Shown here one piece after another: positions 57,671-64,000 of a DNA stretch of 64,000 nt. Source of the stretch: Candidatus Moraniibacteriota bacterium. Lineage in GTDB: Bacteria; Patescibacteriota; Minisyncoccia; Moranbacterales; GCA-2747515. The notes beneath the pieces were generated by a model that had not been told where the DNA came from, did no database searches, and worked only from the letters and a program-made list of their open reading frames with translations. Made by a program: the position numbers and the translations under genes. The stretch lies in the NCBI GenBank assembly GCA_027031495.1, contig JALVQA010000006.1, positions 16,952-80,951 of the forward strand, in the 5' to 3' direction. The first letter of the stretch is position 1; each line of letters starts with the position of its first letter.

Positions 57671-60313
57671 ATGAATATTGATAAATTTACAACAAAAGCA
57701 CAAGAAGTCTTGCAGAATGCGCAGGAGGCAGCGTTAGCGCGTGGCCATCAAAGTATTGGTGCGCTCCATCTCTTGTTTGCACTTTTGCGACAAGGCGATG
57801 AAACAGTGAGTGCTGTACTAAGTGCGCATAATATTGATAAAAGTGCATTAACTGAAGCTGTGGAAAGTGCACTTAAACGAGAGCCGACAGCGTTAGTATC
57901 TGATAGTTCACAAATGGTTTTCAGTCGTGAGTTGGCGCAGATTTTGGAGAGTGCGCAGAAAGAAATGGAGAAACTTGGTGATTCCTTTGTGGCGACGGAA
58001 CATCTGTTTTTAGCGATTCTTGACAATCCGTCAACAGCATCGGACATACTCAAGCATTATGGCATTGATGCAAATGCAGTGCGCACAACACTAAATAACG
58101 TTCGTGGCAACAAGAAAGTTGACACGAAAGAAGGTGGCGGTGATACGCAGGAAGCATTGAAGAAGTATACACAAAATCTCACACAGCGCGTACGCGAGGA
58201 CAAGATTGATCCGATTATTGGGCGTGATGCGGAGATTCGTCGCGTGATGCAAATTCTCTCGCGACGCACAAAGAATAATCCTGTCTTGATTGGTGAACCG
58301 GGTACGGGAAAGACGGCGATTGTGGAAGGACTTGCGCAACGCATTGTAGCCGGTGATGTACCGGAAAACCTTAAAGATAAGGAAATTATCAGTCTTGATA
58401 TGGGTGCGCTGATAGCGGGCGCGAAGTATCGCGGTGAGTTTGAGGATCGCCTCAAGGCGGTGATTAAAGCTGTTGATGAGTCGGCGGGGAAGTACATTCT
58501 CTTTATTGATGAATTGCATATGCTTATCGGTGCTGGCGCTGGCGGTGATAACGCAATGGATGCTGCCAACATTCTCAAACCGGCACTGGCGCGCGGGCAG
58601 ATTCGCACAATTGGTGCAACAACGCTCAAAGAGTATCAAAAATACATTGAAAAGGACGCGGCACTGGAGCGTCGCTTCCAGCCGGTTATGGTAACGGAGC
58701 CATCGCCGGAGGATGCGATCGCCATTTTGCGCGGTATCAAGGAGCGTTATGCGGTTCATCATGGTGTGCGCATTACAGACGATGCTATTATTGCTGCGGT
58801 TAAGTTATCGCAACGCTACATCACCGATCGTTTCTTGCCGGATAAAGCGATTGATCTGTTGGATGAGGCAGCCAGTCAGTTGCGCATAGAGATTGATTCT
58901 ATGCCGGCGGAAATAGATGAACTTGAGCGCAAGATTCGTCAGTTTGAGATCCAAAAGGCAGCGTTGGAGAAGGATTTTGGCGGTGACAAGAAGGGTGGCA
59001 AAAAGACAAAAGAAGATGAGTCAACGGAGAAGAAGCTTGCAGCGATTCAAAAAGAGCTGGCGGATCTTCGTGAGCGCGCACAGGCACTCAAAGTGCAATG
59101 GAAAGCGCAGAAAGACGCAATCATGGCAGTGCGTACAAAGAAGAAAGAACTTGAGAAATTGCGCGCTGAAGCGGAAGCGCTGGAGCGTGAAGGCGAGCTT
59201 GAGAAAGTTGCCGAGTTGCGTTATAGTCGCATTCCATCTCTTGAAAAAGAAATTGCGCAAGCACAAGAAAAACTTGCTGCGCTACAGGGTGAGAATCCAA
59301 TTCTGAAAGAAGAGGTGACAGAAGAAGATATTGCACGTGTCATTTCACAGTGGACAGGTATACCGGTATCAAAGATGCTTGCAAGTGAGATGGAGCGTCT
59401 TGCGCATTTGGAAGATGAACTGCGCAAACGTGTGATCGGGCAGGAGGAAGCGGTTGAGGCAGTTGCAAATGCTATACGTCGCTCACGTGCCGGTATTGCA
59501 CAAGAAGGACGACCAATCGCATCATTCATTTTTCTTGGACCGACAGGCGTTGGTAAGACAGAACTTGCAAAAGCGCTTGCACAGACTCTTTTTGATAGTG
59601 AGAAAGCGTTGGTTCGTCTTGACATGAGTGAATACATGGAGTCACATGCTGTTGCGAAGATGATCGGTTCGCCACCGGGTTATGTTGGCCATGATGAGGG
59701 TGGACAACTAACGGAAATTGTACGGCGCAAACCGTATAGCATTCTCCTCTTTGATGAGATTGAGAAAGCGCATCCTGATGTTTTCAATATCTTTCTGCAA
59801 ATTTTGGATGATGGACGTCTCACTGATGCAAAGGGGCGTACGGTTAACTTTACCAACACAGTCATCATCATGACATCAAACGTCGGTTCTTCAAAGATTA
59901 TGCAGATATACGAAGACGCTGATAAGAAAACGGTTGATGAGGAAGAGATGCGCAAGCGCGTTATGGAAGATGTGCAAAAGACGTTTAAGCCGGAGTTTAT
60001 CAACCGCGTTGACGATATCATCATCTTCCATCCTGTAAATGAGGAGATGCTGCGCAAGATTGTTGATATTCAGATTGGGCAAATTGTGGAGCGCCTTGCA
60101 CAGCGTGATATCACTTTGACGGTTGATGATAAAGCGCGTGCATGTCTTGTTAAGAAAGGTTACGATCCGCTCTATGGCGCACGACCACTCAAGCGCGTTC
60201 TCCAAAAAGAAGTGCTTGATCCTGTCGCACTTGCGATTGTTTCTGATAACACGGGAGCGAAGAAGGCTTTTGCTGTAACGTGTGATGAGAAGGATAAAAT
60301 TATAGTGCAGTAA
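57671..60313 (+). CDS. clpB: ATP-dependent chaperone ClpB
   Basis: Clp N-domain repeats, two AAA+ modules ([15 protein letters not shown]; [15 protein letters not shown]) and a long M-domain coiled coil between them. 880 aa. Confidence 0.95.
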
Positions 60314-60335
60314 TAGTGGCCTCCTTGCGCACAAC

Positions 60336-60364
60336 AAAACCACCGCTGATGGCGGTGGTTTTGC
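60336..60364 (+). terminator. Rho-independent terminator after clpB
   Basis: AAAACCACCGC / GCGGTGGTTTT stem with loop TGAT, followed by a T-rich tail. Confidence 0.7.
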
Positions 60365-60446
60365 GTCTCTCCCATAAAGTGCACTATTGTGCTATACTGT
60401 TTATAAAGGGGTTTGCAGTAAAAAGTAATTATTTAGCATAAAAAAT

Positions 60447-61151
60447 ATGCGAGAAAGGTATATGGACCGACTTCTTACGGAGTTTGATCCGGTTGCGGCG
60501 GGTATGTCGCACAGTATGATCTCCGCACATACGATGTGGGGCTGGATTAAGACAACACTGGTTGTCATTGTTGTCATCCTTATCGGTCTGTTTGTTGCGA
60601 CGACACTGGCAAAACTTGCCGGTACAATTGTACGACGTACAAAGATTGATAAGGCATTTAAGAGTCTTGGCTGGGATGAACAGCTTGAAAAAATTGGCCT
60701 CGCCGTTAAACCGAGCACGGTTATTGCGTGGCTTGTAAAGTGGTTCGTAATCATCGCCGTTTTCTCCGGTGTGGTTAACTATCTCGGCGCGCAACAACTT
60801 GCACGTTTCTTTAATGACATTTTGGCTTATTTGCCGAATGTTGCTATTGCGGTTGTTGTTCTTGTTATCGGTTCTTTGGTGGCGAACTCAGTGCGTACAG
60901 CGGTTGCACGTGTGCTTGAAAACACAAAGGATGTAAAGAATAAAAAGCTTGTTGCGTCGGTGCCGTATTATGCAATTATGACGATCACCGTGCTGACGGC
61001 GCTTGATCATCTCGGTATCGGGGGCAATATGATTGAGATCTTGTTTACCGGCGTTGTTGTAGCGTTTTCTCTTGCACTTGGCTTGGCGTTTGGTCTTGGT
61101 GGCAAGGAACATGCTGCGCGTTTTCTTGATGCGCTCACGCGCAACAAGTAG
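60447..61151 (+). CDS. Hypothetical polytopic membrane protein (conserved-TM-helix repeat type)
   Basis: About 5 TM segments with a repeated helix motif (VIAWLVKWFVIIAVFSGV / AIAVVVLVIGSLVANSV). 234 aa. The true start may be the internal MDRLL. Confidence 0.4.
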   Translation: MRERYMDRLLTEFDPVAAGMSHSMISAHTMWGWIKTTLVVIVVILIGLFVATTLAKLAGTIVRRTKIDKAFKSLGWDEQLEKIGLAVKPSTVIAWLVKWFVIIAVFSGVVNYLGAQQLARFFNDILAYLPNVAIAVVVLVIGSLVANSVRTAVARVLENTKDVKNKKLVASVPYYAIMTITVLTALDHLGIGGNMIEILFTGVVVAFSLALGLAFGLGGKEHAARFLDALTRNK

Positions 61152-61216
61152 AAAAAGCACCCGAAAGCGTGCGAATTAAAAAAATACACGACAATCAGAT
61201 TGGTGATGAAAAGTGC

Positions 61217-61246
61217 AAAACCACCACGAGAGTGGTGGTTTTTTGT
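61217..61246 (+). terminator. Rho-independent terminator
   Basis: AAAACCACCAC / GTGGTGGTTTT with loop GAGA, followed by TTTTTG. Confidence 0.7.
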
Positions 61247-61334
61247 GGATGTTTTGTATAGGAATTATGTTTTGTGCGGGAATTGCCGTAAGAGTACATC
61301 CCTTGTGCAAATGCGAAAAAACAGGGAGAGTCTT

Positions 61335-61363
61335 GCATTATTTGTAAAAATGTGGTATAAATA
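61335..61363 (+). promoter_or_regulatory. Putative sigma-70 promoter for the small-peptide gene
   Basis: TTGCAT, a 17-nt spacer, then TATAAA. An AAGGAGGTG SD lies downstream. Confidence 0.45.
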
Positions 61364-61387
61364 AAGTGGTTCTTTAAGGAGGTGATT

Positions 61388-61567
61388 ATGGATTTTATTA
61401 ACACTCTTTTCTGGGTCCAGGGATGGACTCCACTTACTCTGCTCGGCCTTTTGGCCGTGGCAGAGGCTCTACCGATGCGCTGGACGCGCATCGGTAGGAT
61501 CATCGGGTTGGTCGTGCTTCTGTGCGCGACCAACCTTCTCGGTTTGACAGCCCTATTATTACAATAG
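61388..61567 (+). CDS. 59-aa highly hydrophobic small peptide (two predicted TM or amphipathic helices)
   Basis: MDFINTLFWVQGWTPLTLLGLLAVAEALPMRWTRIGRIIGLVVLLCATNLLGLTALLLQ. Strong SD AGGAGG 7 nt upstream. GC is visibly higher than the surrounding genes. Two tandem terminators follow. Confidence 0.45.
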   Translation: MDFINTLFWVQGWTPLTLLGLLAVAEALPMRWTRIGRIIGLVVLLCATNLLGLTALLLQ

Positions 61568-61624
61568 AGGGCTGTCTGAAAGATTTTTTTGAAGCACGGA
61601 TTGGTGATCTGTGCTTCTTTTTTA
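61546..61624 (+). terminator. Two tandem rho-independent terminators
   Basis: Hairpin 1 is GACAGCCCT / AGGGCTGTC plus a T-run at 61584-61590. Hairpin 2 is GAAGCACgGAT / ATCTGTGCTTC plus TTTTTTAT at 61618-61624. Confidence 0.65.
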
Positions 61625-61679
61625 TGTTTGAGATATGTCTTGTGCGCTGTGTTTTTTGTGCCGTGATATTTGACAAAAA

Positions 61680-61708
61680 AGGTACATCTTGCTAGTATGG
61701 ACACATGA
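61680..61708 (+). promoter_or_regulatory. Putative strong sigma-70 promoter (TTGACA, 17-nt spacer, TAGTAT)
   Basis: Consensus -35 with exact 17-nt spacing. It lies about 170 nt upstream of the next start codon. Confidence 0.5.
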
Positions 61709-61827
61709 AACAAACGACACATACAATGTATATTGTGGTTATGTGGGTGATGCTCCTTAGTGGGCATGGCCGGTTTGTTTCACATTCTGTGTAGAGAGAA
61801 GAAATCTGCACAAAATGAGAAGTGATA

Positions 61828-61852
61828 ATCGGCCAAAGCGCCGATTTTTTTG
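61828..61852 (+). promoter_or_regulatory. Terminator-like hairpin plus U-run inside the 5' leader (candidate attenuator or riboswitch expression platform)
   Basis: ATCGGC caaagc GCCGAT followed by TTTTTTT, ending about 15 nt before the AGGAGG SD of the downstream gene. Confidence 0.4.
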
Positions 61853-61876
61853 TTGTTTAAAAAAGAGGAGGCATTT

Positions 61877-63001
61877 ATGTCTTTTGTTGAAAAGTTTATT
61901 TTTGCCGAAAGTGGTCGCGACGGGGACGTTGTTGAATCAATGTTCACACGCAAGATACCACTTTATGTGCGTCCGATGCTCGTAAGACAAATGCTTAATG
62001 CTGTTCATCAGTGGCAACGATACACGCCCTTGGAGAATAAAACATGGATTGCCAGAGAGCATAATGTGCCATCACTTCTTGTGCGTGTGGATTGTACAAT
62101 AAAGAATCCCATATTGCGCAGTTGTGGCAATGGCGTGATGGTTGATGGTGGTGATGTTTTTATTTACGAAGTTGACGATGCGCCGGCCGGTCAGAAGTTG
62201 ACAATGGTTGTTAATGACCAATTCAGCGAGTTACTTGATTTAATTCAGCAACACTGGCCACCAATGCGTGCGTTTGTATCGGAACGGCGATTTTCCGATA
62301 TTACGCAGTGGCTTGATCCTTATGATGAGAGCTGGGACGGTGTCATTTGGCCATCTATGCGACCGCAAGAAGCGGATAAATATCCGCACATTGTACACAT
62401 GGCGGCACATCCGGTGGTACAAGAGGGGAACAAGAGCTGGATGGTCAAAACCGGTCTTGCATATCGTGTGCACAATTCCCAGAAGCTCCGTGAAGTGCTC
62501 GATGGTCCTTTAGCGTCATCAAGTGTGGTTGTCAAGCCACTAAAGGGTACGCGTTCGTACAAGATCTACCCCTTGTGGAGAAGAGAGATCAGTGGTAGGC
62601 GGCCGAGTGATACAATTATTGATGTGGAAAAATTATACACCGCCGTAGATAATTGCTATGGCGATGAATGGATTGTGCAACAACTTGTTCCGCCTATTGT
62701 ACTGCCGGAGAGCGTTGCTGATAGACTTGATGGTAGGTACAGAAAGTACTGGTATACTCTCCGTATGTATTATGGCTATAATACAATACATGGGGATTAT
62801 ATTCCGTTAGGCGGTGTGTGTAACGGCACAGATTGGCGCCGGCGTGTAATTTCGCACGGTACATCCAGTGCGCTTTTTCTGCCGGCAAAATTGGACAATC
62901 GCCTATACTCGTCAGCGCGTTTTTCTCTGCGGCAATTGTTAAAGAGACATGCCGCACGTATGGAAGAGAAACAAGGGCACAAGGCTCGTTGTACCTCTTA
63001 A
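61877..63001 (+). CDS. Hypothetical protein with weak ATP-grasp-like motifs
   Basis: ATG preceded by AAGAGGAGG. SSSVVVKPLKGTRSYKIY, EWIVQQLVPPIVLP and RKYWYTLRMYYG loosely resemble TTL/RimK-type ATP-grasp elements (VKP..G..G.G; V.QKYI..PLL; D.R.Y.L). GC is higher than the genome background. Confidence 0.35.
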   Translation: MSFVEKFIFAESGRDGDVVESMFTRKIPLYVRPMLVRQMLNAVHQWQRYTPLENKTWIAREHNVPSLLVRVDCTIKNPILRSCGNGVMVDGGDVFIYEVDDAPAGQKLTMVVNDQFSELLDLIQQHWPPMRAFVSERRFSDITQWLDPYDESWDGVIWPSMRPQEADKYPHIVHMAAHPVVQEGNKSWMVKTGLAYRVHNSQKLREVLDGPLASSSVVVKPLKGTRSYKIYPLWRREISGRRPSDTIIDVEKLYTAVDNCYGDEWIVQQLVPPIVLPESVADRLDGRYRKYWYTLRMYYGYNTIHGDYIPLGGVCNGTDWRRRVISHGTSSALFLPAKLDNRLYSSARFSLRQLLKRHAARMEEKQGHKARCTS

Positions 63002-63023
63002 ACTCTTTCTGTGGAATATTCTT

Positions 63024-63060
63024 GAGTCACTGCGTGAAAGCGTCGTGGCTCTTTTTTTAT
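63024..63060 (+). terminator. Rho-independent terminator
   Basis: Imperfect long hairpin GAGTCAC...GTGGCTC followed by TTTTTTT. Confidence 0.5.
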
Positions 63061-63148
63061 TATTTTGCTATCTGTAGATACACATTTTCTCTGCAAATTG
63101 CTTTCAGTGGTGTTTTTTGGTATTGTGAATGGAGAGTAACGAATGTAA

Positions 63149-63927
63149 TGGGTATGTCTATGCATAAGAGGGGGATTATCTTTCATGTGCCGATAGCGTT
63201 GTATGCCATTGTGTATGCGGTTGGTTTGCAGGTACTTGCGCGTTACAGTGCTGAGAGTCTTGTTGTGTTGGCATCTGGTGTTGCTGCGTTTGCAGTGATT
63301 TCTGCCGTTGTTGGGCGCATTATCGCACGACACTTCTTTTTTGCGATTGTGCCGGTTATTTTATCTGTGGCCTCACTTACACTTTTATTTTTTATTGACA
63401 GTCGTTCACAGCAGATTATTGTAAGTGGCATTGTCGGTATTCTTGTCTACGGTGTGACGCTTGGTTCATATAGATTAAGTCGCTATCCGCGCGATGCAGT
63501 CGCGCGTGGTATGGTTGTTGCCGGCGCAACAACGGCGATCTTCTTTTCCTATGCGGCAATTTTTGCCATTTATTTGAACTTTATCGTACCGCTGTGGTTT
63601 GTTGGTTTTAGCATATTTATTTTGACGACGGTCATCTCGTGGCAATATTTTGTCATGATTGCACACGGGCGTTTTGTGCAAACGATTATTTATAGCTGCG
63701 CATTGGGTGTTGTCCTCTCAGAGGTTGCTGTAAGCGCTATTATGTGGCCTTTTGGCTATCTTACAACAAGTGTTGTTCTCCTTATGATATACTATATACT
63801 GTGGGACCTGGGGCAGAGTTTTTTTCTTGAGCGTCTCTCAAAAACGCGTCTTAGCGTGAATGTTATATTTTTTCTTGCTATGGCGGCTCTTGTTTTGTCC
63901 AGTGCACAGTGGCTGCCGGTTGTTTAG
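63149..63927 (+). CDS. Hypothetical polytopic membrane protein (about 8 TM)
   Basis: The internal start MGMSMHKRG follows GGAGAG. The rest of the protein is hydrophobic helices. No recognisable motif. Confidence 0.4.
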
Positions 63928-63951
63928 TTTTTTATTCAAGGAGCAAATCTT

Positions 63952-64000
63952 ATGAAAACCTTTATAAGAAGGGTGATAGCAATTAGTGGCATGTTTTTTC
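63952..64000 (+). CDS. Start of a further CDS (3' end lies outside the window)
   Basis: ATG preceded by CAAGGAGCA. Only 16 codons are visible. Confidence 0.3.
   Translation, partial: MKTFIRRVIAISGMFF

Follow-up and report, generated by a model that had tools for sequence, protein, structure and literature searches.

An attenuator-like leader and a predicted ATP-grasp ligase between core genes of a Moraniibacteriota genome

Introduction

The described enzymes closest to the subject of this paper are glutathionylspermidine synthetase, YgiC and the eukaryotic glutathione synthetases, a branch of the ATP-grasp superfamily, and the described regulatory elements closest to it are attenuators of the trpL and pheL kind. 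Here we analyse a locus from Candidatus Moraniibacteriota bacterium (contig JALVQA010000006.1) at positions 61388–63927 of a 64-kb window, the whole stretch of DNA that was examined and whose numbering is used throughout. An earlier note on this DNA had described three open reading frames (ORFs), which are present on the forward strand at 61388–61567, 61877–63001 and 63148–63927, as are terminator-like hairpins at 61591–61617, 61827–61846 and about 63024–63051 (the last followed by a T-run). The note read the three ORFs as a compositionally distinct island of graspetide or microviridin type, with a precursor-like peptide, a possible ATP-grasp ligase and a membrane protein for export or immunity. 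We consider it quite likely that the region is instead two unrelated things side by side: an inserted, solitary ligase gene under the control of an attenuator, and a core gene of the DUF5656 family.

A circularly permuted ATP-grasp arrangement is known for eukaryotic glutathione synthetase. The ligase studied here is only 11–12% identical to the synthetase domain of Escherichia coli Gss (Protein Data Bank (PDB) code 2io7) and to trypanothione synthetase (2vpm), with no Pfam match above threshold. Its family also differs from Gss in that members of about 300–370 amino acids lack a fused CHAP amidase, and hydrolases (M20, C26, FGase and M17) are encoded by separate genes. With E. coli YgiC and YjfC (7uka) and with Mfla_0391 (3n6x, a ‘circularly permuted ATP-grasp’) the ligase has no detectable sequence similarity, and its family differs from them in genomic partners and in taxa (Patescibacteria). 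According to PMC12568646, which cites Pederick et al. 2023, YgiC and YjfC are peptide–spermidine ligases. The fungal E-64 ligase Cp1B (9cjn), which joins an acid to an amino acid (PMC12568646), and the eukaryotic glutathione and homoglutathione synthetases are eukaryotic, larger (450–520 amino acids) and without any gene context in common with the family. The superfamily fold is common to the ligase and to graspetide and microviridin ligases (PsnB, 7drm). The LysX/ArgX–LysW–LysK amino-group carrier system offers a resemblance only, as LysX is of RimK type and not permuted, and LysW has a conserved acidic C terminus that the leader peptides described below lack.

The likeness to the trpL and pheL attenuators lies in a short upstream ORF, a terminator before the gene and mutually exclusive 1:2, 2:3 and 3:4 pairings. 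Leaderless short-ORF attenuators are known in mycobacteria, in which the short ORFs encode polycysteine, and their leaderless start matches that of the leader in the window (bioRxiv 10.1101/834739). The element described here differs from these known attenuators in the regulated gene, which is a ligase (plus a hydrolase) rather than a biosynthetic operon, in its host clade, which is Patescibacteria, and in its codons, which are mixed aromatic and hydrophobic rather than a run for one amino acid. The leader motif matches no Rfam family.

A predicted ATP-grasp ligase

The soluble protein is identical to the database protein P0001 and is 374 amino acids long, not 375 as previously counted. An AlphaFold2 model built with a 62-sequence alignment has a mean predicted local distance difference test score (pLDDT) of 95.1 and a predicted template modelling score (pTM) of 0.93, and its best structural matches in the PDB are ATP-grasp ligases (scores in brackets): glutathionylspermidine synthetase (2io7, 16.8), Mfla_0391 (3n6x, 15.3), YgiC (7uka, 14.8), the E-64 pathway ligase Cp1B (9cjn, 14.6), trypanothione synthetase (2vpm, 13.6) and several eukaryotic glutathione synthetases and related structures (10–12.7). 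Classical ATP-grasp enzymes (several structures of LysX, DcsG, RimK and Ddl, 4–7.6) and the graspetide ligase PsnB (7drm, 4.3) score far lower, and Foldseek returned the matches in the same order. The suggestion of an ATP-grasp protein was therefore right, and it stands on firmer ground than its author supposed. The protein is not of the MdnB/MdnC/PsnB type that makes graspetides, being closest to the glutathionylspermidine synthetase/YgiC clade.

A Mg-motif-like element, R70xD72...E98xD100, precedes the Lys loop at K220 (VVVKPLKG) and the hinge at Q268 (EWIVQ), an order that fits a circularly permuted arrangement. The K220–Q268 segment aligns to DcsG, and K186 and R296 are also kept; we predict from sequence that R70, D72, E98, K186, K220, Q268 and R296 contact ligands. 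Structural closeness and motif order both place the protein in the glutathionylspermidine synthetase/YgiC-like clade, with no match to a sequence model. As judged from the model, it is an ATP-grasp acid–amine ligase of the glutathionylspermidine synthetase/YgiC/eukaryotic glutathione synthetase branch. The fold and the family come from tool results; by analogy with that branch, we infer a chemistry in which a carboxylate would be activated with ATP as an acyl-phosphate and joined to an amine. The window ligase also carries a β-hairpin insert (approximately residues 76–92) and a 33-residue C-terminal helix (341–373), both predicted with high confidence and both lacking in its closest homologues.

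Standard sequence models do not recognize the protein. A Pfam scan gave nothing above threshold (best, ATPgrasp_YheCD, E = 0.22), neither an NCBIfam scan nor the single protein as a query against PDB sequences gave a match, and none of the 62 family members has a Pfam or NCBIfam match above threshold. A word-indexed search of 5.8 billion proteins found the ligase itself and one relative at 36% identity, and HMMER, run exhaustively on 1.84 billion representatives, gave 112 clusters at E ≤ 1e-3, most of them proteins of about 300 amino acids. The family has the motifs VPSLxVRxD, YExE(E/D)RPxG, EGDKxYG, FVLKPxQG(S/T)(K/R), MYxQxxxPP, IYR and LGGxW..R...HG. Residues D72, E98, P103, G184, K186, Q268 and G313 are invariant, R70, K220, R296 and H327 are nearly so, and the window ligase keeps every one of them. 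The family profile weakly matches DcsG, itself an ATP-grasp enzyme, over the segment from Lys loop to hinge (E = 0.012). The named records are from Candidatus Uhrbacteria and Saccharibacteria, both Patescibacteria, and by sequence the ligase belongs to an undescribed family for which neither Pfam nor NCBIfam has a model.

A candidate attenuator upstream of the ligase

The stretch between a consensus-like promoter and the ligase gene contains a leaderless ORF of 29 codons and an intrinsic terminator (Table 1). The ATG at 61705 sits 6 nucleotides (nt) past the −10 hexamer, and the predicted transcription start is at or beside this ATG. Distant members of the ligase family have the same layout of a consensus promoter, an ATG 6–9 nt past the −10 box (11 nt in L016), an ORF of 17–39 codons, a terminator and the ligase. 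The short-ORF signature lies upstream of 15 of the 29 non-redundant ligase loci, compared with about 1.1 in shuffles or random pieces and 0 on the reverse strand, an excess whose significance is overstated because the signature was defined post hoc. Two further leader ORFs, in L047 and L049, were found by eye. A terminator separates the short ORF from the ligase gene in all 16 leaders examined.

The leader peptides begin with polar residues and continue with a hydrophobic or aromatic stretch that contains a nearly invariant Trp (for example MSEKRYNFILWMCFIYSPAR, MNRNQSNRMFMFWFLYSPMG, MVQKSLIKSYMALFIWD and MNFKQTKTYFFYFFWFSLQAGFGL...). All but one of the 14 peptides contain this Trp, 1–16 residues from the stop. 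Phe (2.5-fold), Met (2.1-fold) and Tyr (1.5-fold) are enriched, and Asp (ratio 0.17), Glu (0.21) and Thr (0.66) are depleted.

Complementarity within the leaders, as computed, points to a switch. In 11 of the 14 leaders compared, the ORF carries at its 3′ end a segment with significant complementarity (p < 0.05) to the terminator's 5′ arm (regions 2:3; Fisher p = 1e-14), and this is kept although the terminator sequences vary between loci. In the window, GGCCGGUU pairs with AAUCGGCC at −11.8 kcal/mol in RNAduplex (shuffled sequences, −7.4 ± 1.8; p = 0.022). The same ORF segment is complementary to the first codons (regions 1:2) in 8 of 13 leaders (Fisher p = 1.7e-10); in the minimum-energy fold of the window leader, whose z score is −3.8, UGAAACAAAC pairs with GUUUGUUUCA. 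The aromatic codons sit between regions 1 and 2. With its 1:2, 2:3 and 3:4 pairings, the layout therefore follows the four-region logic of the trp attenuator, and the sequences indicate that the leader is most likely a ribosome-mediated transcription attenuator.

We propose that transcription starts at the AUG of the 29-codon ORF. A ribosome stalled in the hydrophobic and aromatic middle of this ORF would cover region 1 and release region 2, which would then pair with the terminator's 5′ arm, so that transcription reads through into the ligase. If translation were unimpeded or absent, the terminator would form just before the ribosome-binding site of the ligase. The signal for stalling, we infer, is probably the supply of aromatic or hydrophobic aminoacyl-tRNA. 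The subfamily of L031 (3900–3990) and L032 (805–900) has a second long hairpin of very high stability, placed after the terminator of the attenuator and before the ligase start.

Neighbours of the ligase

Neighbourhoods were read at about 35 loci homologous to the ligase, with an amidohydrolase gene next downstream in nearly all of them. Peptidase_M20 with M20_dimer is found next to the ligase at 15 loci, Peptidase_C26/GATase at L003, L005, L009, L041 and L049, FGase at L008 and L047, and M17 at L007. Given this partner in almost every other genome, the family is probably a ligase/hydrolase pair, in which both enzymes would act on the same small amide-linked compound or short peptide. In the window locus the hydrolase partner is missing. 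The conserved neighbour is thus the hydrolase, and the linkage of peptide, ligase and membrane gene that had been expected in other genomes is not seen.

Two of these loci have further genes of interest. At L005 (1126–2475), the homologue P0003 is without a leader ORF and comes after a radical SAM/SPASM gene and a small opposite-strand DUF5658 gene, and this is the only ligase context with any flavour of a ribosomally synthesized and post-translationally modified peptide (RiPP). At L047 (3700–6868), a leaderless short ORF (MSKVYFIFVIMILWLSGDRRRVLFAK) and a terminator precede three genes, for a second ATP-grasp-like protein, the ligase and FGase. The second ATP-grasp-like protein is divergent and has 333 amino acids (hhalign E = 1.7e-4; Pfam ATPgrasp_ST, E = 0.017). 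This set is located directly upstream of LepA, a 125-amino-acid gene, a PpiC-type rotamase and DUF5656, which, except for the 125-amino-acid gene, are core genes that also flank the window ligase.

An insertion beside a core membrane gene

Synteny identifies 61152–63147 (about 2.0 kb), which contains the 59-codon ORF, the leader and the ligase, as an insertion relative to related genomes. In the closest three genomes found (L044, L045 and L046), the MscS-like gene is followed after 108–147 nt by DUF5656, without a ligase, and the order continues with Trypsin_2/PDZ, FtsZ and ComEC. The window has the identical gene order with the extra 2.0 kb between MscS-like and DUF5656. An equivalent of the terminator at the left edge of the insertion is found directly 3′ of the MscS-like gene in related genomes. 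The segment is a lineage-specific insertion. Integration scars and flanking repeats were sought around it, and only short matches at chance level came up.

As DUF5656 adjoins the MscS-like gene in the relatives, the membrane gene lies outside the inserted unit. As a single sequence, its product scores 14 bits against the PF18900 model (E = 0.032), below the cut-off of 23.3, but it is 40–56% identical to many proteins that carry PF18900, most of its 78 homologue clusters have PF18900 (DUF5656), and the DUF5656 proteins of the three closest genomes are 69–70% identical to it. On these sequence grounds we treat it as a divergent DUF5656 member. Its model (pLDDT 91.8) has nine helices, rather than the eight transmembrane segments reported before, and no specific structural match. 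It is a core gene in its own transcription unit, unrelated to the ligase, and it is present without a ligase in L044–L046. The proposed role in export or immunity is not supported.

Each of the three ORFs has its own promoter-like site and terminator-like hairpin, so they do not resemble one operon. The promoter-like site at 61333–61361 was not listed by the promoter scan, as its second hexamer ends in A rather than T, and the hairpin at 63024–63051 was overlooked by the simple terminator scan owing to one mismatch. NCBIfam and PADLOC scans of the three proteins gave no matches, Rfam gave chance-level matches only, both for the whole window at gathering thresholds and for 61100–64000 at E ≤ 10, and no tRNA genes were found. 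A minus-strand ORF of 190 amino acids (61195–61767), annotated as a gene in public assemblies, was rejected as spurious: it has no Pfam match, its GC content at the three codon positions (GC1/GC2/GC3 0.38/0.42/0.49) is unlike that of real genes here, and it spans promoters, terminators and the hairpin array. Two independent assemblies are 99.97–100% identical over 60300–64000.

A Trypsin_2/PDZ (HtrA-like) gene begins at 63953 and leaves the window at 64000; FtsZ and ComEC are next in the full contig. An HtrA-like gene is also found just upstream of the ligase homologue in L009. MscS-type genes are neighbours of the ligase in two distant lineages, L049 (4185–7301; ligase, C26 and MscS) and the window (MscS-like, then ligase), which may be a coincidence; two cases are too few for us to propose an osmolyte-related role.

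Table 1 Features of the locus in window coordinates
Feature	Position	Strand	Details
MscS-like gene	60447–61151		Upstream neighbour of the insertion
Intrinsic terminator of MscS-like gene	61217–61248	+	11-bp perfect stem, T-run; left edge of insertion
Promoter-like site before 59-codon ORF	61333–61361	+	TTGCAT, 17 nt, TATAAA, TG upstream; read by eye
59-codon ORF	61388–61567	+	MDFINTLFWVQGW...LLLQ; strong Shine–Dalgarno AAGGAGGTGA; gene status uncertain
Array of five near-perfect hairpins, then terminator	61412–61617	+	Hairpins inside 59-codon ORF; canonical terminator 61591–61617
Sigma-70-type promoter	61670–61698	+	TTGACA, 17 nt, TAGTAT, with TG; 10 of 12 consensus positions
Leaderless leader ORF, 29 codons	61705–61794	+	MKQTTHTMYIVVMWVMLLSGHGRFVSHSV; no Shine–Dalgarno; translation predicted
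Attenuator region 1 (candidate)	61706–61715	+	UGAAACAAAC; pairs with 61773–61782 in minimum-energy fold
Attenuator region 2, antiterminator (candidate)	61768–61784	+	GGCCGGUUUGUUUCACA; 3′ part of leader ORF
Attenuator regions 3 and 4, intrinsic terminator	61824–61849	+	Ends 14 nt before ligase Shine–Dalgarno
Predicted ATP-grasp acid–amine ligase	61877–63001	+	374 amino acids; glutathionylspermidine synthetase/YgiC-like (circularly permuted) type
Terminator-like end of ligase transcription unit	63024–63051	+	Hairpin, then TTTTTTTATTATTTT; from RNA fold
DUF5656 (PF18900) membrane protein	63148–63927	+	259 amino acids; nine helices; syntenic core gene

Composition and the hairpin array

The proposed compositional island does not emerge from the numbers, as the codon usage of the two large genes is ordinary and neither codon usage nor GC content differs significantly from the rest of the window. 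The GC content of 61388–63927 is 0.449, compared with a mean of 0.434 (standard deviation 0.0145) for same-size windows across the 64 kb (83rd percentile), and that of 61400–62600 is 0.462 (91st percentile). Among 40 genes ranked by synonymous codon-usage distance, the ligase is 13th and the membrane gene 17th. The sole outlier is the 59-codon ORF, with a GC content of 0.52 (98th percentile), a GC3 of 0.62 (roughly 0.32–0.48 in window genes) and a codon distance within the top 1.4% of random 60-codon pieces. The local rise in GC that had been noticed is due to the GC-rich hairpin stems of this stretch.

The stems of the array are 9–13 base pairs long and include perfect 12-base-pair arms. The RNA fold of 61366–61625 has an energy of −124.9 kcal/mol (z = −10.5; none of 200 shuffles is as stable), and no other 260-nt window in the 64 kb is as stable, this one lying 5.5 standard deviations below the mean. 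The array sequence is unique within the window and absent from all related loci, and no comparable hairpin array was found upstream of other ligase-family members. A search of 5.8 billion proteins returned no homologue of the encoded peptide and no entry for the ORF itself, tBLASTn gave no match in any related locus, and Pfam gave none. The 59-codon stretch may be structured RNA rather than a gene, or it may encode a small membrane protein, or both at once, and the array may also represent a mobile-element relic.

Two further observations concern this stretch. The first ten residues of the ORF, MDFINTLFWV (61388–61417), are identical at six positions to those of the L031 leader, MKFENNLIWV (L031, 3770–3799), and the ORF might be a second leader-like ORF, led by a Shine–Dalgarno sequence, or the match might be due to chance. 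In addition, 15 nt of hairpin 2 (61443–61457) match the attenuator terminator of the ligase (61830–61844) with 87% complementarity, which alone is not significant, as comparably good matches arise by chance within this 2 kb.

Alternative explanations

Besides the post hoc definition of the short-ORF signature, several points weigh against an attenuator-controlled ligase of this type. About 12 of the 29 loci have no recognizable short ORF, and in the window alone the 1:2 complementarity is not significant (p = 0.18) and the 2:3 complementarity is modest (p = 0.022). Unlike classical attenuators, the leaders have no run of a single residue, except in L025, where five of eight residues are Phe, and the abundant residues of the window leader peptide are Met, Val and Ile, not aromatics. 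The circular permutation of the ligase is deduced from motif order and the best-matching structures. By tBLASTn, no M20, M17, C26 or FGase partner is present in the 64-kb window or the next 8 kb, and a ligase without its hydrolase could act differently or be on its way to loss. The last point leads to the idea that the gene is an orphaned, functionless remnant, for which its complete absence from the closest relatives of the genome would also speak. We regard this as improbable: the reading frame, promoter, leader ORF, terminator and Shine–Dalgarno sequence are all intact, every family-invariant residue is retained, the structural model is confident and the two independent assemblies agree. 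Several known arrest peptides have a hydrophobic or aromatic stretch with a Trp, as the leaders do, and the leader ORF could be a drug- or metabolite-dependent arrest peptide of the ErmCL, TnaC or bmrB-leader type instead of an amino-acid sensor, so that translation inhibition or a ligand induces the ligase and hydrolase. The lack of a one-amino-acid run would be expected, and the layout of terminator and antiterminator serves both mechanisms. However, known arrest peptides usually keep a fixed stall-site geometry, whereas the distance from Trp to stop varies here, the enrichment of Phe and Tyr and the Phe run of L025 resemble aromatic-codon sensing, and nothing in the neighbourhoods suggests antibiotic resistance; this makes an arrest peptide unlikely in our view.

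A RiPP-like cassette would have the 29-amino-acid leaderless peptide (or the 59-amino-acid ORF) as a precursor that the ligase modifies, for example at the C-terminal carboxylate, in the way that YgiC and YjfC treat peptides and spermidine, with the hairpin after the ORF setting the stoichiometry of peptide to enzyme, as in the microcin C operon. In its favour, at least 15 loci have a short conserved ORF immediately 5′ of the ligase gene, the structurally similar YgiC and YjfC are peptide–spermidine ligases (PMC12568646), L005 has a radical SAM/SPASM neighbour, and the partner hydrolases are peptidases. Yet the 3′ part of the short ORF co-varies with both the terminator 5′ arm and the ORF 5′ part, as a switch predicts and a stoichiometry hairpin does not; neither the C termini nor the lengths of the peptides (17–39 amino acids) are conserved; and the peptides have no Thr/Ser/Lys/Asp/Glu-rich core. 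The loci have no conserved transporter or immunity gene near the ligase. The 59-amino-acid ORF, which the earlier note had cast as the precursor, is hydrophobic, without homologues and without a counterpart at other ligase loci. With a ligase of the wrong clade, no core-bearing precursor and no conserved co-occurrence, a graspetide or microviridin cassette is unsupported, and we think the RiPP-like reading very unlikely. A better case can be made for the 59-codon ORF as a genuine small two-helix membrane protein that was acquired with the ligase, its hairpins being incidental structure of the messenger RNA, although on balance we find this doubtful. A perfect Shine–Dalgarno sequence at the correct spacing, a promoter-like site and a terminator, the two hydrophobic segments of the ORF, its absence, like that of the ligase, from the closest relatives and the resemblance of its N terminus to the L031 leader all fit a gene. 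Set against these are the lack of any homologue in the protein search, the outlying GC3 and codon usage and the absence of an equivalent array upstream of other family members, and five stems with a fold z score of −10.5 are hard to explain unless RNA or DNA structure is selected.

Implications

The attenuator-controlled ligase, which we continue to prefer, would fit a wider scheme that we put forward tentatively, as a speculation with the odds against it: an undescribed regulon of Patescibacteria in which an aromatic-rich leaderless attenuator reads the supply of aromatic aminoacyl-tRNA and switches on a new ligase/amidohydrolase pair that forms and cleaves an amide-linked amino-acid conjugate. 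Such a conjugate pathway could serve the storage or salvage of amino acids that auxotrophic symbionts cannot make, and the ligase might also use the leader peptide as a substrate or cofactor.

The analysis removes a false lead, that of a graspetide-like RiPP cluster at the locus. It also defines a ligase family, places it in the glutathionylspermidine synthetase/YgiC branch, as the structural model indicates, and identifies an amidohydrolase as its conserved partner. The genomes of Patescibacteria (also known as the Candidate Phyla Radiation (CPR)) are tiny, with few known regulators and with accessory genes that mostly lack annotation. In this setting, a recurrent putative cis-regulatory element is uncovered, made up of a leaderless leader peptide, an antiterminator and a terminator. 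If confirmed, it would rank among the rare documented examples of ribosome-mediated attenuation from the Patescibacteria radiation and would provide a handle on what these organisms sense.

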